From: Gemmatimonadota bacterium | Lineage (GTDB): Bacteria; Gemmatimonadota; Gemmatimonadetes; Longimicrobiales; Gaopeijiaceae | Assembly: GCA_022822445.1 (NCBI GenBank) | Contig: JAJEBR010000054.1 | Location: forward strand, 65,015-129,014 | DNA length: 64,000 bases | Direction of reading: 5' to 3' | Part shown: positions 2,869-41,518 of the stretch, one piece after another | How the letters are laid out: each line of letters starts with the position of its first letter | Numbering within the stretch: position 1 is the first letter of the stretch | Notes under the pieces: model-generated | Database searches by the model: none | Told to the model about the DNA's origin: nothing | Seen by the model: the letters and a program-made list of their open reading frames with translations, nothing else | Translations under genes and position numbers: made by a program

Positions 2869-4461
2869 TCACGGATCGCGCGCCATGGACTTTAGCAGCC
2901 CGGCGATCATAAGCAACAGCACCACGCTCACGGGAAGGGCGGCGGCCATCGCGGCGGTCTGCAGGGCCTGAAGGCCATCGGCGAGGAGCAGCACGGCGGC
3001 CACCACGCCTATACCGAGCCCCCACACGATGCGGAAACGCTGCGGGGGATGGGGGTCGCCCATGCTCAGCAGGGTGGTGATGACAAGCGTTCCGGAGTCG
3101 GACGACGTTACGAACCAGGTCGACAACAGGAGCGTGGCCAAAGCGGACATGCCCCAGGTCAGCCAGCCGCTTTCGCTCAGACGGTCGATGGTCCCGTAGA
3201 GCGCGGCCTCGTAGTTCCCGCCCTGTACCAGTTCGATGATCCCGGCGGTGCCCACGCCGCCCGCCGCGTCGAGCTCCAGATGGATGGCGTTGCCGCCGAA
3301 GATCCCGATCCACAGCAGCCCCAGTGCGGTCGGGACAACCAGCACGCCGACGATGAACTCGCGCACGGTGCGCCCGCGCGAGATGCGGGCGATGAACATG
3401 CCGACGAAGGGAGCCCAGGAAATCCACCATCCCCAGTAGAAGATTGTCCAGGCATTCTGCCAGGCGGCCTGCCCCGCGTCATCGGCGATCCAGAACCCCA
3501 TCGGCAGCGCGTGCCACAGGTATTGGCCGAAGGAGCTTACGACGAATCCCATGAGCCACATGCCGGGGCCGAGGATGAGGAAGCAGCCCAGCAGGATGAT
3601 GCTCAGGCCGACGTTCCACTCCGACAGGACGCGGATCCCGCGGCGCACGCCGGACACGGCCGACAGGGTCGCCGCCAGCGAGATCGCCGCGATCAGCACG
3701 ACCTGGGTGACGACCCCCGGATCGACGCCCGCCAGAACGTTGAGTCCGGTGGCCATCTGGCTGGCCCCGAGCCCCAGCGTGGTCGCGATGCCGAAGACCG
3801 CGCCGAAAACCGCCAGCAGGTCCACCAGGTCGCCGATGGGGCCGTAGATCCGGTCGCCGATCAGCGGATGCAGGGCCGACCGCAGCGTCAGCGGCAGCTT
3901 CTTGCGAAACCCGAAGTAGGCCAGGCACAGCCCGACCAGGACGTAGACGGCCCAGCCGTGCAGGCCCCAATGGAAGAAGACGACACGCATGGCGTGGGCG
4001 GCGCGCTCCTCGTCCAGCGATACGGCGCCGGCAAGGTCGGCCAGAGGGTTGTTCGGGTAGCCCGCGCTCTGGCTGTTGTCGAAGTAGGAGAGCGGTTCGG
4101 CAATCGAGAAGAAGAGCAATCCGATCCCCACCCCCGCGGAAAACAGCATGGCCAGCCAGGAGGACGTGCGGAACTCCGGCCTGGAACCGTCATCGCCGAG
4201 CCGGATCCTCCCGAACCGGCTGCACGCCAGTAGCACGCAGGCAAAGAGGCAGGCGCAGACGGTCAGGATGTAGAACCAGTCCAGCGTCCCCTCGATCCAG
4301 CTGCGGATGCGCTCGAACACGGCGCCGGCGGCCTCCACGTCCCGGATGGCGACGAGGACGAACACCAGGACGAAGCCCTTGGCCGCCAGCGCCATGGTGG
4401 GGTTCAGTCCCTTCCACGGCCCGTCCTTCGCCGTCGCCCTCCGGTCCCGCCCGTCGTTCAT
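2869..4461 (-). CDS. BCCT-family (betaine/carnitine/choline) transporter
   Basis: Signature WTIFYWGWWISWAPFVGMFIARISRGRTVREF with about 12 TM segments. Start chosen at MNDGRD (4459-4461). Confidence 0.9.
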   Translation of the reverse strand: MNDGRDRRATAKDGPWKGLNPTMALAAKGFVLVFVLVAIRDVEAAGAVFERIRSWIEGTLDWFYILTVCACLFACVLLACSRFGRIRLGDDGSRPEFRTSSWLAMLFSAGVGIGLLFFSIAEPLSYFDNSQSAGYPNNPLADLAGAVSLDEERAAHAMRVVFFHWGLHGWAVYVLVGLCLAYFGFRKKLPLTLRSALHPLIGDRIYGPIGDLVDLLAVFGAVFGIATTLGLGASQMATGLNVLAGVDPGVVTQVVLIAAISLAATLSAVSGVRRGIRVLSEWNVGLSIILLGCFLILGPGMWLMGFVVSSFGQYLWHALPMGFWIADDAGQAAWQNAWTIFYWGWWISWAPFVGMFIARISRGRTVREFIVGVLVVPTALGLLWIGIFGGNAIHLELDAAGGVGTAGIIELVQGGNYEAALYGTIDRLSESGWLTWGMSALATLLLSTWFVTSSDSGTLVITTLLSMGDPHPPQRFRIVWGLGIGVVAAVLLLADGLQALQTAAMAAALPVSVVLLLMIAGLLKSMARDP

Positions 4462-4614
4462 GGCCCCTTCCTGGTCGCCTTGCCACGTAGCGCCCCGCCG
4501 CTCTCGGTGCTCGCGCGGTTCATCCGCGGACTGCCGAGTCCTTCGGGGGCTGCCTGTAGTATACGTCCCATTCCGCCATTGATCCGCCCCTCGCCCGGGT
4601 GCATCCTTCATGGC

Positions 4615-6791: not shown

Positions 6792-6830
6792 TGTAAAGTA
6801 TACATTACACTTTGTCATGTTTGCCATACA
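6792..6830 (+). promoter_or_regulatory. 39-bp bipartite palindromic element, copy A
   Basis: TGTAAAGTATACATTACA-ctt-TGTCATGTTTGCCATACA. Box 2 contains the luxE ATG (6817-6819). TTGACG (6782-6787), 18 nt, TACACT (6806-6811) reads as a promoter ending 5 nt before that ATG. Confidence 0.6.
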
Positions 6831-8109
6831 TCTCGACGCTGCCCAGGAACCCGGAGCCGCCCGGGACCCCGACGCTGCCTTCAACCGCCTCGCCCTGAAG
6901 GTCCACGCGGTCCAGCGCGCCACCAACCCTGTGCTGCGCCGGTACTGGGACGCCGTCTCGGACGGGCAACCCGCCGCGTGGAACGAGATCCCCCCGGTGC
7001 CGGTTCGCGCATTCCGGGACACGCCGATCGTCACCGGCACCGCCGAAGTCGTCTTCCGCACCAGCGGCACGACCGGCGGCGGGAGTGGCGGCGACAGTGG
7101 AGGCGGCCCTGGCGACGGCAGTGGAGGCGGCACTGGCAACAGGAGTGGAGGCGGCACCGGCGACGGCAGTGGAGGCGGCCGTGGCAACAGGAGTGGAGGC
7201 GGCACCGGCGACGGCAACGCTGGCGGCACCGGCCACGGCATCGGTCGCGGCGAGCATCACGTCGCGAGTCTGGAACTATACCGCGCGGCTGCCCAGGACA
7301 ACTACCGGCAACACCTCTTCGCGGGAGCGCCTGCGCTGAGCCTCATCTCGCTGGTCCCGAACCCCGCCGTCGTCCCCGATTCCTCGCTGGCCACGATGGC
7401 CGGCTTCATCGCCCGGGAACCGGAAGTGCGGCACGCCGCCTGGGCCTTCGATCCGGAGCGCGGCGTGGATGTCGATGCGGTGCGGGAAGCCGTCGCGGCA
7501 GCGGCGTCGGTCGCGGCGACGGCGACGGGCCCGACGACGACGGAGGCCCCGCCCCGCCCCGCGTCCGCCACCCCCCCACCCATCCTCCTCCTCACCACCG
7601 CCTTCGCGCTCGTCCAGCTCCTCGACGCGCTCGCCGACTCCCCCCTCCCCCTCCCGAACGGCTCCCGTATCATGGAGACCGGCGGCTTCAAGGGCCGCAC
7701 CGCCGAGATCGGCCGCCCCACCCTCTACCGGCGCGTGCACGGCACCCTCGGCGTCCCCGAGTCGCACATCGTGAACGAGTACGGCATGACCGAGATGCTC
7801 TCGCAGGCGTACGACTGCGTCGCGGGGCAGGGGCCGCCGGCCGCCGAGCGCGTGCACCGGTTTCCGCCCTGGGTGCGGACGCGCGCGCTCGACCCCGCCG
7901 ATCTGTCCCCTCTGCCCGCCGGACGCCCCGGCCTGCTGGCCCACTTCGACCTGGCCAACGCGGCGTCGGTCTGCCACCTGCTGACCGAGGACTACGGATC
8001 CGTCACCGCCGACGGCGGCGTGCGGCTGCTGGGCCGCGCCCCGGGCGCCGCGGTGCGGGGGTGCTCGCTGGCCGCGGAGGCATTCCTGCGAATGACGGGG
8101 GCCGCGTGA
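6817..8109 (+). CDS. luxE: Acyl-protein synthetase, LuxE family, with a Gly-rich insertion
   Basis: NPVLRRYWDAV..., FRTSGTTG nucleotide loop, IMETGGFKGR, EYGMTEMLSQ, and C-terminal GRAPGAAVRGCSL are typical of the LuxE family. Internal ATG of track ORF 6361..8109. Confidence 0.7.
   Translation: MFAIHLDAAQEPGAARDPDAAFNRLALKVHAVQRATNPVLRRYWDAVSDGQPAAWNEIPPVPVRAFRDTPIVTGTAEVVFRTSGTTGGGSGGDSGGGPGDGSGGGTGNRSGGGTGDGSGGGRGNRSGGGTGDGNAGGTGHGIGRGEHHVASLELYRAAAQDNYRQHLFAGAPALSLISLVPNPAVVPDSSLATMAGFIAREPEVRHAAWAFDPERGVDVDAVREAVAAAASVAATATGPTTTEAPPRPASATPPPILLLTTAFALVQLLDALADSPLPLPNGSRIMETGGFKGRTAEIGRPTLYRRVHGTLGVPESHIVNEYGMTEMLSQAYDCVAGQGPPAAERVHRFPPWVRTRALDPADLSPLPAGRPGLLAHFDLANAASVCHLLTEDYGSVTADGGVRLLGRAPGAAVRGCSLAAEAFLRMTGAA
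7111..7233 (+). repeat. 48-bp tandem repeat (2.5 units) encoding GDGSGGGTGNRSGGGT
   Basis: Units at 7111-7158 and 7159-7206 differ at 2 positions; a partial third unit starts at 7207. Confidence 0.9.
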
Positions 8110-9806: not shown

Positions 9807-9998
9807 CTAATCGTCCGATTCGGGTTCGTTTCGCCACATGACCAGCTGGCGGGTTCCCCTCGGCGTCTCCTCCACGCGAACCGTCAGTGTGTCACCCTTG
9901 CGGATTCCGCAATCGGAGCGAATTCCGAGGGGGATCGTCAGCCGCCCACCGGTCCCGACCGTCACGTCTCCGTAGTAGAGCGTTCGATAGATTGCCAC
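9807..9998 (-). CDS. AbrB/MazE/SpoVT-family DNA-binding protein (orphan antitoxin-like)
   Basis: GGRLTIPLGIRSDCGIRKGDTLTVRVEE matches the SpoVT-AbrB looped-hinge-helix pattern. GTG start preceded by AAGGAG at 5-nt spacing. No partner toxin ORF on either side. Confidence 0.6.
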   Translation of the reverse strand: MAIYRTLYYGDVTVGTGGRLTIPLGIRSDCGIRKGDTLTVRVEETPRGTRQLVMWRNEPESDD

Positions 9999-13832: not shown

Positions 13833-13916
13833 GGTCTAACCGCCTGCGGAGCGGGTCCACGTTGCATTCGGCACGCGGTGTACCCGGGCTGGATCGCGAC
13901 GCTCGTGTAGGCGCGT

Positions 13917-13955
13917 TGTAATGAAAACATTACGAAATGTCATGTTTTCTTTACT
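13917..13955. promoter_or_regulatory. 39-bp bipartite palindromic element, copy B
   Basis: TGTAATGAAAACATTACG-aaa-TGTCATGTTTTCTTTACT. Lies 84 nt from the minus-strand start at 13832 and 359 nt from actA. Confidence 0.6.
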
Positions 13956-14214
13956 TTCCTGACTCCTGAGTCCCGTCTGCATTGTTCCTCGGACAAACTG
14001 CACCGCCATTTGCACCTCGTTGGGCCTCGCCCAGCCGACGCTCCGAGGTGCGACGCGGGGATTACCCACGGACAGTCTAGCGAACGGCGGGTGGCGGCGC
14101 ACCCCGCAGGGCTCGCCGCGGGCGTGATTTGCCGGCTCCGGTTCGAGGTCCGCAGGCCGGGCGATCGGGCGCGGGCGGGTCGTGTGGGGGGAGCCGCCGG
14201 GGGTTGCACTCGTG

Positions 14215-14243
14215 TTGACATCGCCGGAGGCGGCTCCTACCTT
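14215..14243 (+). promoter_or_regulatory. Putative sigma70-type promoter of the ACIII operon
   Basis: TTGACA (14215-14220), 17-nt spacer, TACCTT (14238-14243), about 70 nt upstream of actA. Confidence 0.4.
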
Positions 14244-14314: not shown

Positions 14315-14887
14315 ATGCCTACCGCACTAATGAAGAGGTTGTGGCTGGTGGTCGGGGCGGGAGCGATTTCGGTCCTCCTGGGAATCGCCCTGATCGGCAG
14401 CCGGCAAGCCCCCGGCGAAGGCGAGGCCGTCCAGGCCGGCGCCTCCATGGAGCAGTCCCAACCGATCCAGTTCCCCCACGACACCCACGCGGGCCAGTTC
14501 CTGATCAACTGCCAGTACTGCCACTACTCGGCGGAGCGCTCGGTGGACGCGGGGATCCCTCCGGTCGAGACCTGCATCGGATGTCACCGCGAGGGGCTCA
14601 TCGACGGGAGGAACATTCCGGAGGAGATCGTGAAGGTCCGGGAGCACTACGATTCCGGCACCGCGATTCCGTGGCGGCGCATCTACAAGGTCTCCGATCA
14701 TGTGCACTTCCCGCACATGCGGCACGTCGCGGCCGGGGTCTCCTGCCAGACCTGCCATGGCCAGGTGCAGGAGATGGGCGTGCTTGAGGAGATGGCCCCG
14801 GAGGCGGGGAACCTGAAGATGGGTTGGTGCATTTCCTGTCACCTGGAGCGCGGGGCTTCCCGCGACTGCACGGTATGCCACTACTAG
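14315..14887 (+). CDS. actA: Alternative complex III subunit ActA (pentahaem cytochrome c)
   Basis: Five CxxCH motifs (CQYCH, CIGCH, CQTCH, CISCH, CTVCH), an N-terminal TM anchor, and first position in the act cluster. Confidence 0.85.
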   Translation: MPTALMKRLWLVVGAGAISVLLGIALIGSRQAPGEGEAVQAGASMEQSQPIQFPHDTHAGQFLINCQYCHYSAERSVDAGIPPVETCIGCHREGLIDGRNIPEEIVKVREHYDSGTAIPWRRIYKVSDHVHFPHMRHVAAGVSCQTCHGQVQEMGVLEEMAPEAGNLKMGWCISCHLERGASRDCTVCHY

Positions 14888-14978
14888 CAGCGGCTGGAAT
14901 CGGTCCGCGCCGCATTGGGCCGAATGCTGGTGGCCGCGCGTTCCGCCACATGGGGCCGGCGGCGGGGGCGGCAATCCG

Positions 14979-17900
14979 ATGAGCGGCGGTTTCGAGCGGC
15001 GCGAATTCCTGAAGGTGATCGGCGTGACCGGTGCAGGTGCCGCCGTCACGGGGTGCCGCACCGACGAGGTTGAGCGCCTGATTCCCTATGTGACGCCACC
15101 GGAGGAGATCACCCCCGGTGTGGCGACCTGGTACGCGTCGACCTGCGGGGAATGTGCGAGCGGGTGCGGGATCCGGGTGCGGACGCGGGAGGGACGGGTG
15201 GTGATGGTCGAGGGCAACCCCGATCATCCGGTGTCCGCGGGCGGGCTCTGCTCCCGTGGCGTGTCGGCGCTGCAGGGGCTCTACAACGCGGACAGGATTG
15301 CCACGCCGTTGCGCGCCACCGGAGACGGTGGCTTCGAGGCGGTCGGCTGGGACGAGGCGCTGGATCTCCTGGCCAGCCGGCTGGGGGGGGGCGGGCGGTC
15401 CCTGTTCCTGACCGGGGCCAAGGGGCCCACCGAGTCCATGCTTCTGGACGGGTTCGTGGAGGCGGTGGGCGGGCAGCGCGTGGTCTACGACGCCCTCGAC
15501 GATACGGCACTGCGGACCGCGGTCGAAATCGCCTTCGGGGTGAACGTGCTGCCGCGCTACGAGATCGCCGCGGCTCGCTTCCTGGTGTCTTTCGGCGCCG
15601 ACTTCCTTGAGACGTGGCTGTCGCCGGTGAAGTTCGCGGCCGACTTCGCGCAGATGCACGGGGTCGAGAACGGCGAGAAGGGGCGCTTCGCATTCGTGGG
15701 TCCGCGCCTGTCGCTCACCGGCCAGAACGCGGACGAATGGATCCCGGCGCGGGCCGGTTCCGAAACCGCCATCGCGCTGGCGGTCGCCGGGGAGCTGGTG
15801 CGGCGCGGCGGGGACGCGGGCCCGTACAACGATGTGGTCTCCGGCTACAGCCTCGAGGACGCGGCCGCGGCGGCCGGGGTGGAGCCCGAGGCGCTCTCCG
15901 CGCTCGCCGATCACTTCGCCGGTGGTGACGCGCTGGCGCTCGGGCCGGGCCTGGCGGGCAGCCACCAGGCGGCGACGGCGGCCAACCTGGCCGTGCTGAT
16001 CCTGAACGCGGCGGCGGGCAGCCTCGGCAACACGATGCACATCGACGCCGCGCCCGCTGGGGATGCGTCGTCCTACGGCGACCTGGCCGGCGCGATCGCG
16101 CAGATGGGCGCGGGCAGCTACGGCGTGGCGGTGGTGTCGGGCGCGAACCCCGCCTACACCCTGCCCCCCGCCGCCGCGTTCGGCGACGCCTTCGGCGCGG
16201 TGCCCTTCAAGGTCGCCTTCGCCACGGCCATGGACGAGACGGCCGCGATGGCCGACCTCGTGCTGCCCGACGCGCACCCGCTCGAGTCCTGGGGCGACAG
16301 CCGACCCTCGCCGGGGACCTATGCGGTGCGGCAGCCCGCCATGCGCCCGGTGCCGCTCTTCGACTCGCGCCCCATGGCCGACGTGCTCCTGGACACCGGA
16401 CAACGGCTGGGCCACGACTTCGGCGCCGCCACCTTCCGTGACTACCTGCGGGGTGCCTTCGACCGGTGGCTCGCGGAAGACGGAATGCGCGCCGGGCTGG
16501 CGGGCGACCCGAACCGGCTCTGGCGGGTCGCGCTGCGGACGGGGTCGGTGTCCCACGTCGATCTTTCGGACAAGATCACCGCGCTCCAACCCCCAGTCAC
16601 CGCGGTGGACTTCGACGCGGCTGGCGTCGCGGGCGGCGGAGCGGCCGGTGACGACGAGCTGACGCTGCTGGTCTACCCTTCACCCAGATTCGGCGACGGC
16701 ACCCACGCGAACCGTCCCTGGCTGCAGGAGCTGCCCGACCCCGTCTCGAAGGTGATGTGGCACTCCTGGGTCGAGATGAACCCGGCCACCGCCGATCGGC
16801 TCGGCCTGCGGCAGGGCGATATCGTGAGCGTGGCGACCCCGGAGGGTTCGGTCGAGGTCCCGGTGTGGGCCTATCCGGGCATCCGCGAGGATGTGGTGGC
16901 GATCGCGATGGGCGGGGGCCACACGGACTACGGGCAGTTCGCCAACGGCAAGGGCGTCAACCCGATGGGGCTCCTCGCCGGCGACGTGGACGGGGACTCG
17001 GGTGCGCTTTCCCTGCTGGCGGCCGGTGTAACGATCACCGCGACCGGAGCCTGGCAGCGGCTGGTCACGAACGAGGGATCCAGCGACCAGGACGACCGCA
17101 ACGTCGCCCCGGCAATCGCGCTGTCGGCGCTTGGCCACGCCCCGGAGGAGGAGGAGCACGCCGAGGATGGACACGGCCAGCTCCGCGAGCTGCAGGAGAT
17201 GGGCGGATTCCGGCCGGTCGACACCGAGGGCCGCGCGGAGGACTTTCCCCTTCCCGGCTCCGACTTCGGGCCCTACGACGAAAACCAGCCGCGCTGGGCC
17301 ATGGCGATGGACCTGGACAAGTGCACCGGGTGCAGCGCCTGCATCACCGCCTGCCAGGCCGAGAACAACATCCCCTGGGTGCACGAGAACCAGGCGGCGA
17401 TCGGCCGGGAGATGCACTGGCTGCGGCTGGAGCGGTACTACGAGACGGTCGACGCGTCGCATTCGGGCCCGGTGGACATCCGCTTCCTGCCGATGCTCTG
17501 CCAGCACTGCAACAACGCGCCCTGCGAGCCGGTCTGCCCCGTCTTCGCGGCCTACCACACCCCGGACGGGCTGAACGCGCAGGCGTACAACCGCTGCGTG
17601 GGCACGCGCTACTGCGCCAACAACTGCCCGTACAAGGTCCGCGTCTTCAACTGGTACCGGTACACACAGGATCCCGCGGATGGGGGGAACATCCCGGAAC
17701 CGATGAACTGGCAGTTCAACCCGGATGTGACGGTGCGCAACAACGGCGTCATGGAGAAGTGCACCTTCTGCGTGCAGCGGATCCGCGAGGCCCAGAACCG
17801 CGCCGCCGTCGAAGAGCGCGAAGTGCGCGACGGCGAGGTCCACACGGCCTGCCAGAGCGTCTGTCCCGCGGACGTCATCACCTTCGGGAACATCCGGGAC

Positions 17901-18035
17901 CACGACTCGCAGGTGGCCGCGCGCGCCGGCGACGAACGCACCTACCGCGTGCTCGACGCCCTGATCAACACGCAGCCGGCGGTCCATTACCTGAAGAAGG
18001 TCACGCACCACGATGTGGAGGAGGCGGGGCACTGA
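14979..18035 (+). CDS. actB: Alternative complex III subunit ActB (molybdopterin-oxidoreductase-like domain fused to a 4Fe-4S domain)
   Basis: Tat signal ERREFLKV. N-terminal Cys cluster CGECASGC. C-terminal ferredoxin-type clusters CTGCSACITAC, CQHCNNAPCEPVC, CVGTRYCANNCP. 1018 aa. Confidence 0.9.
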   Translation: MSGGFERREFLKVIGVTGAGAAVTGCRTDEVERLIPYVTPPEEITPGVATWYASTCGECASGCGIRVRTREGRVVMVEGNPDHPVSAGGLCSRGVSALQGLYNADRIATPLRATGDGGFEAVGWDEALDLLASRLGGGGRSLFLTGAKGPTESMLLDGFVEAVGGQRVVYDALDDTALRTAVEIAFGVNVLPRYEIAAARFLVSFGADFLETWLSPVKFAADFAQMHGVENGEKGRFAFVGPRLSLTGQNADEWIPARAGSETAIALAVAGELVRRGGDAGPYNDVVSGYSLEDAAAAAGVEPEALSALADHFAGGDALALGPGLAGSHQAATAANLAVLILNAAAGSLGNTMHIDAAPAGDASSYGDLAGAIAQMGAGSYGVAVVSGANPAYTLPPAAAFGDAFGAVPFKVAFATAMDETAAMADLVLPDAHPLESWGDSRPSPGTYAVRQPAMRPVPLFDSRPMADVLLDTGQRLGHDFGAATFRDYLRGAFDRWLAEDGMRAGLAGDPNRLWRVALRTGSVSHVDLSDKITALQPPVTAVDFDAAGVAGGGAAGDDELTLLVYPSPRFGDGTHANRPWLQELPDPVSKVMWHSWVEMNPATADRLGLRQGDIVSVATPEGSVEVPVWAYPGIREDVVAIAMGGGHTDYGQFANGKGVNPMGLLAGDVDGDSGALSLLAAGVTITATGAWQRLVTNEGSSDQDDRNVAPAIALSALGHAPEEEEHAEDGHGQLRELQEMGGFRPVDTEGRAEDFPLPGSDFGPYDENQPRWAMAMDLDKCTGCSACITACQAENNIPWVHENQAAIGREMHWLRLERYYETVDASHSGPVDIRFLPMLCQHCNNAPCEPVCPVFAAYHTPDGLNAQAYNRCVGTRYCANNCPYKVRVFNWYRYTQDPADGGNIPEPMNWQFNPDVTVRNNGVMEKCTFCVQRIREAQNRAAVEEREVRDGEVHTACQSVCPADVITFGNIRDHDSQVAARAGDERTYRVLDALINTQPAVHYLKKVTHHDVEEAGH

Positions 18036-18080
18036 TGCGGTCCGTGTACGATCTCCGCGTGGCGGCGAGGCGCTGAAGCG

Positions 18081-19444
<1,364 letters not shown>

Positions 19445-19448
<4 letters not shown>

Positions 19449-19990
19449 TGGGAGCCAGACGGCGCCAGGGGCACCGCGGATTCTTCGCGCTCTTCGAGCA
19501 CCTCGACTCGACCATCGACGCGTGCAAGGCGTTGCGGGCGGCGGGCCACAAGCGGTTCCGCGCCTACGCGCCCCTGCCGGAGCACAACCTGCTGGAGGAC
19601 GGATTGGCGCTGAAGCACAGCCCGGTGCGGGTCTTCACCCTGGCCGGCGCCATGACGGGCGCGGCGACCGGCTTCGCCTTCACCACCTGGACCTCGCTCG
19701 ACTGGCCGCTCATAACGGGCGGCAAGCCGCTGATGTCGATCCCCGCGTACGTGGTGATCGCCTTCGAGTGTGCGATCCTCTTCGGCGCGCTGTCGACCGT
19801 GATCGGCCTGTTCATCAACGCGGGCCTGCCCAACTTCCGCCCGATGGTCGCCTACCACCCCGCGTGCTCCGACGGCTGCTTCGGGGTGTACGTCACCGCG
19901 CCGCCGGCGAAGGCCGACGCGGTGAAGGAGTTGCTGGACGGATTCCAACCCGCCGAGTTGCAGGAAGATCCGGAGGGGTTCGATGTGTAG
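19445..19990 (+). CDS. actD: Alternative complex III subunit ActD (DUF3341-like)
   Basis: ATGA overlap with the actC stop. GFFALFEHLDSTIDACKALRAAGH plus two TM segments. Confidence 0.75.
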
Positions 19991-20051
19991 GGGCCGGCGG
20001 AGGATTCGTGGGCCCGAGGGAGGGAGGCGAAGCGCCGCGGCAGTCGACGTG

Positions 20052-20090
20052 CGTAAAGCCGACATGACATTATGTAAACGAAACATTACA
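20052..20090 (+). promoter_or_regulatory. 39-bp bipartite palindromic element, copy C (inside the ACIII operon)
   Basis: CGTAAAGCCGACATGACA-tta-TGTAAACGAAACATTACA. Read as a promoter: ATGACA, 17 nt, TACAAT (20087-20092), with the actE ATG at 20097 and no SD. Confidence 0.6.
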
Positions 20091-20096
20091 ATTCGG

Positions 20097-20786
20097 ATGA
20101 ATGGATGGCGCGGTCCGACGCAGCGGCCTGCGCCGCGCTCACTCGCATTGGCTGCGCTCGTGCTGGCAATGATCACCTCCGGCGCCTGCACGCCGCTCGA
20201 CGACGCCATGGCGACGATCTTCGGGCGGAGCATGCGGGACCAGCGGTCCTTCGATCCCTACGAGAACACGCTGATGCCGCCGGAGGGGTCGGTGCCGCTC
20301 TCGGCCGGGAATTACGCGGCCGGGCACTTCGATGTGAATGTGGGACAGCCGGAGGGGGCCACCGACGTGCCGCCGCCCTTCACGCAGATGGAGATGACCC
20401 AGCGGCCGGAGATCGTGGACAGCCTCACCAATCCGGTGCCCGCGACCCCCGAATCGCTGGCACGCGGCGAGCAGATCTACGAGCGCGTCTGCATCGTCTG
20501 CCACGGACCGGACGGCAACGGGGCGAATGCCTACATCGTCTCCCTGCATCCGGCGCTTGTAGCCCAGAACCTGCGTAGCGAACTCTCGATCGGACGGAGC
20601 GACGGCTACATCTACGGGATCATCCGGGTCGGACGGACGCTGATGCCGGGCTACGGCCACCAGATCGGCCACTACGACCGGTGGCACGTCGTGAACTATG
20701 TGCGCCAGCTGCAGGGGCAGCTCGAGGAACCGGGCCAGGAACCGGGCCAGGAGCCGGAGCCGGGCGCGAACGGGGCGGTGAACTGA
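20097..20786 (+). CDS. actE: Alternative complex III subunit ActE (monohaem cytochrome c lipoprotein)
   Basis: Lipobox LAMITSGAC; single CIVCH haem motif. Start chosen at MNGWRG; the track ORF starts at 19983 and would span the element. Confidence 0.8.
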   Translation: MNGWRGPTQRPAPRSLALAALVLAMITSGACTPLDDAMATIFGRSMRDQRSFDPYENTLMPPEGSVPLSAGNYAAGHFDVNVGQPEGATDVPPPFTQMEMTQRPEIVDSLTNPVPATPESLARGEQIYERVCIVCHGPDGNGANAYIVSLHPALVAQNLRSELSIGRSDGYIYGIIRVGRTLMPGYGHQIGHYDRWHVVNYVRQLQGQLEEPGQEPGQEPEPGANGAVN

Positions 20787-20790
20787 AGCG

Positions 20791-22092
20791 ATGATGCACC
20801 AGCCGATTCCCCGGGAGGTCTCGCTCCGCCACCTTGAGCGGGGCCGCGCCGGTACCATGGCGCTGCGGCTGATGGTGCTGGTGGGTGCGGTCACCTTCTT
20901 CTACACGCTGTTCAACGACGCGGCGCTGGCGTGGAAGTCCTATGTGGTGAACTGGAGCTTCTTCACCTCGATCGCGCTGGGAGGGATCCTGGTCGCGGTG
21001 GTGACCTGGATCGTGAAGGCGAAGTGGAACTGGCCGCTGCGGCGGGTCCACCAGTCGTTCGCGGCCTACCTGCCGATCGCCTTCGTCCTCTTCATCCCGA
21101 TGCTGTTCAGCCTGCGCGAGGACTACTTCCCGTGGATCGAGATGATGGAGTACGATCCGATCGTGCAGAAGAAGGCGGCCTGGCTGAACATCCCGTTCCT
21201 GCTCAGCCGCAACCTGGTGGGGGTGGTGGCGCTCTTCTCGATGGCGCTGGGCTTCGTGTACCTGGCGCTGCGTCCGGACCTGGGGCGGATCGGACAGGCG
21301 CGTACCGCCGCCGAGCGCGACGATCGGGCGGGCGGCTGGTGGCGCGAACGATTCACCCGCGGGTGGACGGGGCAGGAGGCCGAGGAGGAGCGCAGCTATC
21401 AGCTCATGACCAGGATGGCGCCGGCCTACGTGCTGGTCTACGCGGCGGTCATGACGATGCTGGTCTTCGACTGGTCGATGTCGCTGGAGCCGCACTGGTT
21501 CTCGACGCTGTACGGCGGCTGGTATTTCATGGGGGCCTTCTGGGGAGGCTTCGCGGCCACCGCGGTCCTCTCGATGCTGATCAGGCGTCGTGACTCCGTC
21601 TTCCGGGATTATGTGGGCCCGAAGGTGCGGTGGGACCTCGGCAAGCTCGTCTTCGCCTTCGCCGTCTTCTGGACCTACCTGTTCTGGTCTCAGTACATCG
21701 TCATCTGGTACGGCAAGCTGCCCTGGGAGCAGGCCTGGGTCGCCACGCGGCTGGGCGAACCGTGGGGCGGATTCTCGCTGGCCGTGATCGTGCTCTGCTT
21801 CGTGGTGCCGTTCTTCGGGCTCCTCGGCGTGCGGCCCAAGAAGACTCCGGCGCTGCTCGCGACCTTCGCCACGGCGGTGCTCGGCGGGATCTGGCTCTGG
21901 CACTACATGCTCTTCTTCCCGTCGCTGCACCACGAGGGCGATCCCGTGTTCTCGGTCGCGACCCCTCTGATCGGGCTGATGTTCCTGGGGCTGTTCCTGC
22001 TGGCGGTTCGGTGGTTCCTGGCAACCTTCCCGCTCGTGCAGATGTGGCAGCCGCCGGTGGACCCGGAGCCGATGGAGGCCGAGGGGCGGTAG
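20791..22092 (+). CDS. actF: Alternative complex III subunit ActF (ActC paralogue)
   Basis: Polytopic membrane protein, last position of the act cluster. Confidence 0.8.
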   Translation: MMHQPIPREVSLRHLERGRAGTMALRLMVLVGAVTFFYTLFNDAALAWKSYVVNWSFFTSIALGGILVAVVTWIVKAKWNWPLRRVHQSFAAYLPIAFVLFIPMLFSLREDYFPWIEMMEYDPIVQKKAAWLNIPFLLSRNLVGVVALFSMALGFVYLALRPDLGRIGQARTAAERDDRAGGWWRERFTRGWTGQEAEEERSYQLMTRMAPAYVLVYAAVMTMLVFDWSMSLEPHWFSTLYGGWYFMGAFWGGFAATAVLSMLIRRRDSVFRDYVGPKVRWDLGKLVFAFAVFWTYLFWSQYIVIWYGKLPWEQAWVATRLGEPWGGFSLAVIVLCFVVPFFGLLGVRPKKTPALLATFATAVLGGIWLWHYMLFFPSLHHEGDPVFSVATPLIGLMFLGLFLLAVRWFLATFPLVQMWQPPVDPEPMEAEGR

Positions 22093-31637: not shown

Positions 31638-34082
31638 ATGGCAAGTGCGGCCGCTCGGTTTGCGATTGCGGCCGCTCTTGCTCCCGTCTTTCTGCCCCTG
31701 ACTCTCTCGGGGCAGAACCTCTTCCCCGGAGCGGCGGACGCCGCACTGCCGGATTCGGTGCGCCGCGACCTCACCGACGGCCGCTACTGGAGGGCCAGTC
31801 TGGCGCTGCGTGCCCACCTGGAGCCGCTCGCGGACGCGCCCCTTGCCGCCCGCATGGTGCTGGCGGAGGCTGAGGCCGGGTGGAAGAACTGGAGCGGGGC
31901 CGTCGCGGCCCTCTCGGCCGGCGATCTGGACACGGCACAGGCGCCGCCCAGGGTCTGGTACCTGCTGGGGACTTCGCGTCAGGCCGTCGGCGACGAACCG
32001 GGGGCCACGGCCGACTTTCGGCGCTTCCTCGCCACGGAGGGCACGGACTCCCGCGAGACGCTGGTGGCGCGCGCGCGCCTTGCCGGACTTCTGGCCGATG
32101 GCGCCTCGCCCGGGGAGGCGATGGCCGTGCTGGAGGAACTTCGTACGCGCTCCCCGGTAGTGGCCGGCTGGTCCGCACTTGCCTCGGCACGGGCGCACTC
32201 GGCGGAGGGCCGAGCGGCGGCGGTTCCCGAGGCGCTTGCACTGATTGCCGACCCGGCGGTGCGCCGCCGCGGCTGGTCGCTCGAGTCCGACGCCCGGGCG
32301 GCCGCGGGAGATACGGCGATGGCGCTGGAGGCACTGCTGCGGGCCGGGGCCGGAGAAGGCGACGCAACGTCCCCGCAGGCCGGGGTACCTGGTGGTGCCG
32401 AGACGCCGACCGGGGCGGAGCCGCCCCCGCGTGTCCCGTTTCTCGCCAGGGAGTGGCGCTACAGGCTTGCTCTGACGGACTCCGCCGGCGCGGTGGAGGC
32501 GATGGAGGCGCTCCTGCGCGAGACCACCAGCGGAAACGCAGCCCTGACGGCCGCGAAGGCCCACTGGAGGGTCGCGACGAACTCCGGCCCCGAGATCCTG
32601 CGCCTCGTTGCGCGCGCCCATGCGAATGGCGGCGAGTTCGGCACGGCGGTGATCGCCTGGCGCCTCGTGGCCGAGCGAGGCGGCGCCCTCACCGAGCGCG
32701 ACCGCCTTGCCGAGGCTCGTGCCTTCAGCGGCAGCGGCGCCCTGGACGCCGCCATCACCGCGTACCGCCCACTGGCCGAGTCGGACGACCCCGCCGTCGC
32801 CGCGACCGCTCTGCAGGAGTGGGCGGGCGTCCGGTCCCGGCAGGGGCGCCACGGCGATGCCCGCACCGTGCAGGGCTGGCTCGTGGAGCGATACCCCGCC
32901 AGCACCGGGGCGCTGGACATCGTCTTCTTCCGCGCGGACGACCACCAGGACGCGGGCCGTCTCGACACCGCCATCGAGCACTACCGGCAGGTCGTCGCGA
33001 TGTCGTCCGGGGCGGACCGCGCCGGGCTGTCGCGGATGCGCTGGGCACAGATCCACCTCGGGCGGGGCGAACACGGGGCCGCCGCCGATGTCTACGGCGA
33101 CTACCTGGAGGAGTTCCCGAACGGCCGGCGCTGGGAGGAGGCGAGCTACTGGGGAGCCCGCGCCGCGCTCACCACCGGTGACACCGCCCGGGCCGCCGCA
33201 TGGCTCGACCGGCTGCGCCGTGAGAGCCCCTACTCGTACTACGCGTTCCTCGCCGGGCGCGGACCGGCAGACCCCGCTGCCGATGCAGCGTCCGCCTTCG
33301 GTCCCCCGCCCCAGGGCTGCCTGGTACCTCCCCCGCCCGACTGGCTGGCGCGTCAGTTGGAAGTACTGACCACGCTGCAGCAAGCGGAGCTGGAGGAAGG
33401 TGCCGCGGCCCACATCGACGCCATGCGAACCGCCGTCTGGAACTCCGACGAACTCCTGCTCCGGCTGGGCACGTCACTCAACGAGGCCGGCTATCCGATC
33501 GACGGCATCCGCCTGGGCTGGGAGCTGCGGGACCGAGGGCGGGAATGGGACTGTGCCCTGCTTCGCGTCGTGTATCCCTTCCCCTACCGGGATCTGCTCA
33601 CGTCGCGCGCCGAGGAGCTTGGCCTGGATCCGTGGCTGGTGGCGGGCCTCGTGCGGCAGGAGAGCGCCTTCCACCCGTCGATCGTATCCCCCGCCGGCGC
33701 GATCGGTCTCATGCAGGTCATGCCGGCCACGGGCAGGCAGCTGGCGCGCGCGAGCGGGGTGCGCGACTTCACCACCGAGACGCTCGAGAACGCGGAGGTG
33801 AACGTCCACCTGGGCACGCGCTTCCTGGCCGAACTGTTCGAGCGCTACGACGGAGACGTCCCCCTCTTCCTGTCGGCCTACAACGCCGGCCCCACCCGAG
33901 CCAACCGCTGGCGTCGCATGCCGGAGGCCGCCGATCCGGAGCGCTTCACCGAGCGGATCCCCTTCGCGGAGACGAGAGGCTACGTCAAGAACGTAGTAAG
34001 GAACAGGGCGCTGTACCGCTGGCTCTACGGGGGCGGCGACGCGACCCCTGGCAGCGCGGCGCTCTGGTCACCCGATATGTAA
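31638..34082 (+). CDS. slt: Soluble lytic murein transglycosylase (Slt70-like: helical repeat domain plus SLT domain)
   Basis: Signal peptide; long Ala/Leu-rich superhelical region; C-terminal catalytic motif VRQESAFHPSIVSPAGAIGLMQVMPATG...AYNAGP. Confidence 0.8.
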   Translation: MASAAARFAIAAALAPVFLPLTLSGQNLFPGAADAALPDSVRRDLTDGRYWRASLALRAHLEPLADAPLAARMVLAEAEAGWKNWSGAVAALSAGDLDTAQAPPRVWYLLGTSRQAVGDEPGATADFRRFLATEGTDSRETLVARARLAGLLADGASPGEAMAVLEELRTRSPVVAGWSALASARAHSAEGRAAAVPEALALIADPAVRRRGWSLESDARAAAGDTAMALEALLRAGAGEGDATSPQAGVPGGAETPTGAEPPPRVPFLAREWRYRLALTDSAGAVEAMEALLRETTSGNAALTAAKAHWRVATNSGPEILRLVARAHANGGEFGTAVIAWRLVAERGGALTERDRLAEARAFSGSGALDAAITAYRPLAESDDPAVAATALQEWAGVRSRQGRHGDARTVQGWLVERYPASTGALDIVFFRADDHQDAGRLDTAIEHYRQVVAMSSGADRAGLSRMRWAQIHLGRGEHGAAADVYGDYLEEFPNGRRWEEASYWGARAALTTGDTARAAAWLDRLRRESPYSYYAFLAGRGPADPAADAASAFGPPPQGCLVPPPPDWLARQLEVLTTLQQAELEEGAAAHIDAMRTAVWNSDELLLRLGTSLNEAGYPIDGIRLGWELRDRGREWDCALLRVVYPFPYRDLLTSRAEELGLDPWLVAGLVRQESAFHPSIVSPAGAIGLMQVMPATGRQLARASGVRDFTTETLENAEVNVHLGTRFLAELFERYDGDVPLFLSAYNAGPTRANRWRRMPEAADPERFTERIPFAETRGYVKNVVRNRALYRWLYGGGDATPGSAALWSPDM

Positions 34083-34116
34083 TGAGAACATGACATAATG
34101 TAATGTTTTATTGACA
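34078..34116 (+). promoter_or_regulatory. 39-bp bipartite palindromic element, copy D
   Basis: TGTAATGAGAACATGACA-taa-TGTAATGTTTTATTGACA. Starts on the slt stop codon and ends 80 nt before the ABC ATPase ATG. Confidence 0.6.
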
Positions 34117-34196
34117 GCGTAGTGAGGTGTGAGCGCCACGGGCGTGAGCGCCGCAGCCCGGGCCGATGGATCCACGCCGAAGGAAGAAGGTGACGA

Positions 34197-41140: not shown

Positions 41141-41341
41141 ATGACACGAGGGACGGTCAAGTGGTTCAACGATTCCAAGGGCTATGGCTTCATCGCCCGT
41201 CCATCGGGCGGCGACGTGTTCGTTCACTTCAGCTCGATTCAGGGGGATGGGTTCCGAACCCTGGCCGAGGGCGACGAGGTGGAGTTCGAGGTTCAGGAGA
41301 CGGACCGGGGCCTGCAAGCGACCAACGTGATTCGCGCCTGA
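41141..41341 (+). CDS. csp: Cold-shock protein (CspA family)
   Basis: [15 protein letters not shown] (RNP1) and VFVHFS (RNP2); 66 aa. Confidence 0.95.
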
Positions 41342-41376
41342 CCGTCGTCCCGGTGCGGAGCTATGGGGATCGAGAC

Positions 41377-41415
41377 TGTAAAGTAAATATGACATTTTGT
41401 AAAGTTGTCATTACA
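41377..41415 (+). promoter_or_regulatory. 39-bp bipartite palindromic element, copy E
   Basis: TGTAAAGTAAATATGACA-ttt-TGTAAAGTTGTCATTACA, 103 nt upstream of the polA ATG. Promoter reading: ATGACA, 17 nt, TACAGT. Confidence 0.6.
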
Positions 41416-41518
41416 GTGTGGCCCGTTGAGCGTAGCGGTCCGGCGCGGATGCCTCGCCGACCGAATTCAGCGGGGCTTTATTCCACGGGCTAGAGGGTCG
41501 CGGGCGGCGCTGCACACC

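Follow-up and report, generated by a model that had tools for sequence, protein, structure and literature searches.

A dispersed, insertion-polymorphic repeat of Gemmatimonadota with a core that resembles an XRE promoter-operator

The 64-kb stretch of a Gemmatimonadota contig, a metagenome scaffold, analyzed here (hereafter, the window) contains six copies (A to F) of a 39-mer made of two 18-bp inverted-repeat boxes separated by 3 bp. The motif is real, clade-specific and multi-copy, occurs within a larger repeat bounded by inverted repeats (X alone, or X+Y where the 39-mer is included), and is insertion-polymorphic among related genomes. Comparison with other phyla indicates that the identical architecture is used there as a promoter with two operators for a small repressor of the XRE (Cro/C1) family. 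On balance, the 39-mer is probably the core (Y) of a lineage-specific, dispersed and insertion-prone repeat that carries a repressor-operator promoter, and not a conserved regulon signal. The dispersed copies in the Longimicrobiales could be bound by such a repressor, and would be able to act as outward, repressible promoters.

Six paired palindromes in the window

All six 39-mers, first described in an earlier note made from the sequence of the window, were verified letter for letter and in position. A search of the 64 kb with the pattern TGTMAW-N6-WTKACA-N3-TGTMAW-N6-WTKACA, allowing up to three mismatches, returned these six sites only, with D and E matching it exactly. The same search gave 0.00 copies expected from 100 dinucleotide-preserving shuffles, and bears out the view that a chance origin is negligible. 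The GC content of the window is 68.5%. When an 18-bp box position weight matrix was built and symmetrised (consensus TGTAAWG-N4-CWTKACA), the 12 boxes scored 18.6–32.9 bits and the best other site in the window about 10 bits, and this large gap indicates that boxes occur there in pairs only, with no lone box. The spacer between the boxes is exactly 3 bp long in all copies, as had been proposed, but it is not always pure A/T (that of copy A is ctt). Likewise, the placement of all copies in intergenic DNA is approximate only, as A holds the ATG of luxE and the codons directly after it, and the open reading frame (ORF) of an SLT/TPR gene stops inside D. Most of the gene labels given previously were confirmed by Pfam. 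The copies and their neighboring features are as follows.

4476..4538, minus strand: lone X left arm without a 39-mer (nhmmer left-arm profile, E = 1e-6 to 1e-7)
6792..6830: copy A, a 39-mer without recognisable larger-repeat flanks; box 2 contains the luxE ATG (6817)
6817..8109: LuxE-like gene (Pfam)
13836..14078, minus strand: copy B, a near full-length X+Y (~245 bp) in the order left inverted-repeat arm, internal hairpin module, 39-mer (13917-13955), right arm
14215..14243, plus strand: probable act-operon promoter TTGACA-17-TACCTT, outside the repeat
14315-22092: alternative complex III (act) operon (Pfam)
20052..20090: copy C, a 39-mer inside the act operon, between actD and actE
34078..34116: copy D, a 39-mer with the SLT/TPR gene on one side and an ABC ATPase gene on the other
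34197: ATG of the ABC ATPase gene (Pfam)
41355..41495, plus strand: copy E, a 39-mer (41377-41415) with the X right arm (~140 bp), between a cold-shock gene (end at 41340) and polA
41519: true ATG of polA
53485..53523: copy F, a 39-mer alone, with the ATG of the EVE-domain gene 98 nt downstream
53622: true ATG of the EVE-domain gene

A larger repeat with inverted-repeat ends

Conserved flanks were found on 49 of 98 Gemmatimonadota copies, and their alignment revealed a composite X+Y repeat of ~245 bp and an X repeat, found alone, of ~180 bp. The X+Y form begins with a ~60-bp left arm, followed by a short spacer, a hairpin, the sequence CCGAGGAGCAACGCAGAGCGAAGC, ~14 nt, the 39-mer, ~12 nt, the sequence GAGCGAAGC, and finally a right arm that repeats the left arm imperfectly in inverted orientation (identical at 45 of ~62 positions, compared with a maximum of 41 in 300 shuffles). 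Compensatory variants are seen in the stem of the internal hairpin (CCAATAGC/GCTATTGG, CTGGTAGC/GCTACCGG and GAATAGC/GCTATTC). Complete X repeats without the 39-mer also exist, in which GCAGAGCGAAGC is joined to GGTCCAGC, and 30 of the 69 right arms present in 664 kb of loci have no 39-mer. The segment of ~74 bp that is present in X+Y and missing from empty X consists of ~65 bp of Y and a second copy of the 9-bp sequence GAGCGAAGC. Since Y is bracketed by a direct repeat of these 9 bp, and empty X repeats exist, Y looks like an insertion into X.

X is also found in tandem clusters, and in a shorter form that lacks the hairpin, both of which suggest that it is modular, like BIME (bacterial interspersed mosaic element) or BOX repeats. 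Head-to-tail clusters of X, with and without the 39-mer, occur at four loci (L028, 2182-3207; L051, 3263-3694; L108, 4236-4661; L119, 1389-1815), and at another (L032, 5408) there are three 18-bp boxes in a row. According to crude gene calling, and so only approximately, the copies lie almost wholly outside predicted coding regions.

In the window, the X+Y profile matched copy B over profile positions 9-260 (nhmmer, E = 8e-18), and the larger-repeat profile matched copy E (41355-41495) with E = 6e-22. Copy C showed a weak extension into the X right arm (20053-20123, E = 6e-4), and a weak match to the X profile was seen at copy D (34061-34130). The statement that flanking sequences are not conserved thus fails for B and E and, to a weaker degree, for C and D. 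It had been used to argue against a miniature inverted-repeat transposable element (MITE), an argument that is refuted by the finding that a ~245-bp repeat with terminal inverted repeats surrounds half of the Longimicrobiales copies. The repeat has the properties of a MITE in being small and non-coding, and in having terminal inverted repeats, many dispersed copies and insertion polymorphism. The ends of X are often, although not consistently, flanked by TA or TG. Comparison with Rfam gave no match at the gathering threshold for the window, and none in E-value mode for the full element. The lone left arm at 4476-4538 sits in a stretch of unusual AT skew (-0.53 at 4401-4600).

Insertion polymorphism among relatives

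The presence or absence of the window copies was judged at syntenic or orthologous loci of related genomes (L-numbered loci). The segment containing E is absent from L159, where PolA is 94% identical and the csp-polA synteny is the same, and also from L122 and L199, with flanks that can be aligned on both sides of the gap. L207 (PolA 89% identical) carries the segment, and L208, L209 and L210 lack it. The insertion of B is common to the window and L202, and in L204 it has been reduced to a remnant of one chimeric box and an X end, while nothing of it was detected in L205, L221 and L222. L202, L204 and L205 retain copy A at the corresponding position, and 31 of its 39 columns are invariant between these and the window, compared with ~24 of 44 in the rest of its intergenic spacer. 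Copy A is absent from the syntenic L221 and L222, where no 39-mer was found in 17 kb. Copy D has no counterpart after the SLT gene of L208 (PolA 89% identical), and in L207-L210 the EVE gene that follows copy F is not found at the corresponding position. Taken as sites of a conserved regulon, as the earlier note had proposed, the copies do not behave as expected: compared with related genomes, A, B and E are insertions, and one relative lacks D.

The density of 39-mers is also variable, with six in the 64 kb of the window and four in 23 kb of L207, compared with none in the 23 kb of either L209 or L210. No 39-mer was detected in ~70 kb of loci from relatives with 65–76% PolA identity. The SLT/TPR ORF (31638..34082) reads into D and ends at a TAA in box 1; its product carries a 14-residue C-terminal extension, DATPGSAALWSPDM (34040-34082), relative to the L208 orthologue, which ends LYGGGG.

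Single two-box sites and a small XRE operon in other phyla

An exact-pattern scan covering one genome per GTDB species returned at least 119 stretches with the two-box pattern. Metagenome-assembled genomes (MAGs) of Gemmatimonadota/Longimicrobiales account for 77 of the 119 matches listed, often with many per genome; one 2.9-Mb contig has at least 17 exact-pattern stretches, and one MAG at least 14. Homologues of the window's LuxE (73% identical) and PolA (89% identical) also belong to Gemmatimonadota. The remaining 42 of the matches listed are single sites from many phyla, including the candidate phyla radiation (CPR), Spirochaetota, Bacteroidota, Planctomycetota, Bdellovibrionota, Thermotogota, Chloroflexota and Actinomycetota, along with one archaeon. 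These canonical sites have the form TGTAAAG-N4-CTTTACA nnn TGTCAAG-N4-CTTTACA, and in some there is a third box 21 bp away.

A gene for a ~70-aa HTH_3 (XRE/Cro-C1) protein was found by tblastn near the site in 35 of the 42 listed loci from outside Gemmatimonadota, at a distance of ~50-600 bp in most and ~1-3.4 kb in three. The gene lies either directly downstream of the site or after a gene for a ~130-165-aa membrane protein without a Pfam family, and it points away from the site in 34 of the 34 loci scored. Read in the direction of the operon, the inner arm is an exact TTGACA in 25 of 34 loci (3 of 34 in the opposite direction), and a TAnnnT is located 17 nt past it in 30 of 34 (18 of 34 opposite). 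The oriented occurrence of both hexamers in the boxes indicates that the two-box site is a consensus sigma-70 promoter with its -35 and -10 elements embedded in two operators. Nine loci have a start codon 8 nt beyond the site, which implies a leaderless mRNA. The canonical site would be an autoregulatory switch of the Cro/CI type, with the association of promoter and operon emerging from the comparison of loci, and binding by the XRE protein being predicted. Both the dimer-of-dimers operator geometry and the -35/-10 reading that had been put forward for the window therefore hold in the motif's canonical relatives, in 34 loci of other phyla.

The operon itself, consisting of a two-box promoter-operator, often a 130-165-aa membrane protein, and then the ~70-aa HTH_3/XRE protein, appears to be uncharacterised. 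It is carried by ~35 loci (L004, L014, L016, L017, L024, L039, L044, L073, L086, L092, L098, L106, L113 and others), and the XRE protein and the DNA site are both conserved over a range that extends from CPR bacteria to Actinomycetota and includes one archaeon. The papers searched contained nothing on this operator, or on MITE or repetitive extragenic palindrome (REP) repeats in Gemmatimonadota. A phage origin was considered and set aside, as there were just 10 exact matches in 2.9 million viral contigs, none of them with this XRE. In two viral contigs (L213, 5368; L219, 4626) the box forms exact 21-bp tandem direct repeats resembling iterons, with no XRE gene of the family nearby.

Promoter features of the dispersed copies

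Twelve sigma-70-like consensus sites were called in 35 kb of the window, and six of them are located within copies A, C, E and F. Hexamers of the type ATGACA or ATTACA, with TACAnT, are present in B, C, E and F. The site in copy C, ATGACA-17-TACAAT, has 10 of 12 matches, making it the best promoter-like site in 15 kb, and ends 5 nt ahead of the actE ATG; copy C as a whole ends 6 nt ahead of this probable start (20097). The site in copy F, ATGACA-17-TACATT, was also called as promoter-like. Copy B is not the promoter of the act operon; a TTGACA-17-TACCTT at 14215-14243 is the probable one, being invariant in the window, L202, L204 and L205 regardless of B. This act promoter suggests that the lineage uses ordinary promoters of the sigma-70 type.

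Complementarity between the arms of the boxes does not exceed expectation, and pair 6-13 has complementary bases in 30% of boxes, where 47% would be expected. Complementarity at or below expectation argues that the boxes are a protein site and not a hairpin. Folding of the whole element as a single strand gave z = -1.65.

Copy A and the start of luxE

In L221 and L222, which lack copy A, the stop codon of an amidohydrolase gene overlaps the start of luxE as TTGA. Relative to this arrangement, A represents an older insertion with a net length of ~90 nt, which separated the two genes of a translationally coupled amidohydrolase-luxE pair. Its box-2 ATG serves as the luxE start in four genomes, and the proteins of luxE orthologues carrying A begin MF(A/T)IH or MSTIH at the ATG inside box 2. 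The presence of an in-frame 18-nt indel supports the view that the reading frame from this ATG is coding. Promoter-like calls at copy A are TTGACG-18-TACACT on the plus strand and ATGACA-17-TACATT on the minus strand. The first of these had been interpreted as giving a leaderless luxE mRNA, and it was recovered by an independent scan and fits the N-termini of the orthologues; it would put the predicted start of luxE transcription at the box-2 ATG.

A 39-mer at L208 8382-8420, with a box 2 (TGTCATGTTCTCCATACA) much like that of copy A, overlaps the start of a gene for a 378-aa protein without a Pfam family, and may be a further example of an element that includes a start codon. The LuxE protein of the window also contains a Gly/Ser/Asp-rich, low-complexity insertion of ~50 aa (~7080-7240, residues ~90-143), GGSGGDSGGGPGDGSGGGTGNRSGGG..., which is absent from the eight aligned orthologues.

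Comparison with known elements

The best-studied autoregulated promoter-operators include the OR operators of phages lambda, 434 and P22, and those of the controller (C) proteins of restriction-modification systems. The 39-mer resembles the promoter-operators of XRE/Cro-C1 proteins in having adjacent palindromic operators on one helix face that overlap the -35 and -10 elements, and it is identical to the widespread XRE-operon site in half-site (TGTMAW), box length (18 bp) and gap (3 bp). The leaderless geometry of the latter, with an ATG 8 nt past the site, recalls lambda PRM. Unlike the XRE-operon site, the Gemmatimonadota copies are multi-copy, dispersed and insertion-polymorphic, their -35 arm is usually ATGACA, ATTACA or TTTACA, position 6 of the half-site is often T, and there is no adjacent XRE gene in the window or in 76 of the 77 Gemmatimonadota loci listed. 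In the window, none of the copies has a cognate ~70-aa HTH_3 gene pointing away from it.

Correia elements of Neisseria carry a site for integration host factor (IHF) and outward promoters, and in the RIP/RIB BIMEs of E. coli, inverted REPs flank a central IHF site. The Longimicrobiales repeat is similar to these in being small and non-coding, with inverted-repeat arms around an AT-rich, presumably protein-binding core, and in being modular (with or without hairpin or core), clustered in tandem, intergenic and insertion-polymorphic. It differs in having an XRE-type, two-operator promoter at its center in place of an IHF site, in its host phylum, and in a sequence that is unrelated as far as tested (Rfam, literature). 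Furthermore, no cognate transposase or REP-associated tyrosine transposase (RAYT) was identified when elements bounded by X arms were sought in 664 kb of loci, and no RAYT search was made.

A likeness to ARG and TyrR boxes was also raised in the earlier note. The ARG boxes of E. coli are likewise two 18-bp palindromes 3 bp apart, and the TyrR pattern TGTAAA-N6-TTTACA is literally matched by many of the boxes. Membership of either family was rejected because of the consensus register and the genes nearby: TGTAAW in the boxes occupies a different register from that of the ARG consensus, TNTGAATWWWWATTCANW, and unlike the targets of ArgR and TyrR, the neighboring genes (luxE, act, ABC, polA, EVE) are not concerned with arginine or aromatic amino acids. 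The regulator assigned by adjacency in the canonical loci is the 70-aa XRE protein, not ArgR or TyrR.

Origin and possible function of the repeat

In the explanation that we favour, the 39-mer is the core of a mobile promoter-operator repeat. X+Y units (~245 bp) and their fragments have inserted into intergenic DNA at places that differ among close relatives. The four TGTMAW half-sites of the core form two 18-bp palindromes set 21 bp apart. Judged by sequence and geometry, the core corresponds to the autoregulated promoter of the small XRE operon of other phyla, and the inner arm would double as a -35 element, and the last TACA plus 2 nt as a -10 element. A small XRE-type dimer would bind each box, and the two dimers, adjacent to each other on the same helix face, would jointly occlude an outward-firing promoter of the sigma-70 type. 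A copy landing upstream of a gene could then supply it with a repressible promoter and, at luxE, with a new start codon as well.

Several observations weigh against this explanation. A single old event, followed by the spread of X+Y, can also explain why Y is found at a common point in X, and independent mobility of Y is at present an inference. Copies E and A are indels that replace ~22-26 nt, with no clean duplication, and do not resemble clean cut-and-paste events. A search of 664 kb of loci for an autonomous insertion sequence with X ends, defined as correctly oriented arm pairs separated by 0.7-4 kb, found none. An exact TTGACA is rare in Gemmatimonadota copies (11 of 208), and the bias of their orientation is negligible, with TAnnnT present toward gene starts in 59 of 96 and toward gene ends in 37 of 74, and six copies lying between convergent genes; these gene-context statistics are approximate, as they come from crude gene calling. 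No XRE gene of the family was detected by tblastn in the window or beside 76 of the 77 Gemmatimonadota loci listed, the single locus with one (L020) having the canonical, single-site layout. The best 120 XRE homologues listed were filled by other lineages, and so cannot show whether Longimicrobiales genomes encode one.

Much the same observations can be explained by a purely selfish repeat, in which the double palindrome is a structural or transposition feature (a site for a mobilising enzyme or a host architectural protein) and the likeness to XRE sites reflects origin only, with no role as a promoter or repressor target in the host. Differences in presence and absence between close relatives, the lack of an orientation bias, the copies between convergent genes, the lack of a cognate XRE gene nearby and the degraded -35 hexamers relative to canonical sites all favour it, and it has an appreciable although limited probability. 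It accounts less well for the half-sites, which stay intact in copies with decayed flanks, for the retention of A in four genomes with 31 of 39 columns invariant and its ATG used as the luxE start in all four, or for a core that keeps the exact geometry and half-site of a demonstrably promoter-associated site; transposases, moreover, normally bind the ends of elements, not the center. The reading preferred in the earlier note, that of non-mobile, in-place chromosomal operators of a regulon controlled by a dimer-of-dimers repressor, is in keeping with the confirmed arrangement of the boxes, two 18-bp palindromes with a 3-bp gap, and with the conservation of A in four syntenic genomes. It is now improbable, being already contradicted by the absence of A, B and E from syntenic sites in relatives, where the flanks align across the gap, by the lack of D in one of them, and by the arms of a repeat with inverted-repeat ends that are carried by B and E. 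The downstream genes are also functionally unrelated, and the density of copies differs sharply between relatives.

Two further readings seem very unlikely. The elements could represent a general type of promoter in this organism (housekeeping or alternative-sigma), as ATGACA/ATTACA-17-TACAnT occurs in four of the six copies, and half of the consensus promoter matches in 35 kb fall within copies. This was rejected because the conserved act promoter is an ordinary TTGACA-17-TACCTT without palindromes, and the same genes in relatives do without the element; nor would a promoter need the conserved outer left arms. The boxes might instead form RNA or DNA hairpins, acting as a terminator, an RNA stability element or REP-like cruciforms, since each is an imperfect 7+7 palindrome, and REP and BIME elements work partly in this way. 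Here the complementarity of the arms, not above expectation and with pair 6-13 below it, speaks for a different role, the AT-rich stems lack a T-tract, and none of the copies was called as a terminator-like site. A structured RNA family was similarly dismissed, given the lack of an Rfam match, the unexceptional fold of the whole element (z = -1.65 only) and the absence of arm-arm covariation.

Returning to the mobile promoter-operator, what would be new is a MITE- or BIME-like repeat whose protein-binding core is a complete repressor-operator promoter. A more far-reaching version, which we offer tentatively, is that a MITE-like repeat captured a full XRE promoter-operator and spread it, wiring dozens to hundreds of unrelated genes into one XRE network. 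The luxEC, actE, polA, ABC exporter and EVE genes might in this way have gained a portable, repressible promoter and leaderless mRNA, and the insertion at luxE might have broken a translationally coupled pair and donated a start codon. If the core is bound by an XRE repressor and its promoter fires, the repeat would provide a clear example from nature of a mobile element that distributes a finished promoter under repressor control, so that a regulon arises through transposition in place of point mutation, and luxE would be a gene with a start codon and N-terminus donated by an insert. Independently of this, the widespread XRE operon offers a ready-made, predictable pair of operator and repressor. 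The repeat also accounts for unusual gene starts and stops in the annotation of these MAGs, among them the start of luxE and the C-terminal extension of the SLT protein.

Other features of the window

A 63-aa protein with an AbrB/SpoVT-like motif (GRLTIPLGIR...GDTLTV) is encoded at 9807-9998 on the minus strand, convergent with luxC. It was considered as a nearby regulator and rejected, as it has no Pfam match and no link to the element. Its sequence is 100% identical between the window and L202 (12723-12914, minus strand), whereas LuxE is only 83% identical, and the gene was also called at the same place in L204, L205, L221 and L222. Between ~36800 and 41400 the GC content of the window falls to 0.57-0.66, compared with ~0.69 elsewhere, and the genes in this block are without Pfam matches in the loci of relatives; it may be a horizontally acquired or variable region.

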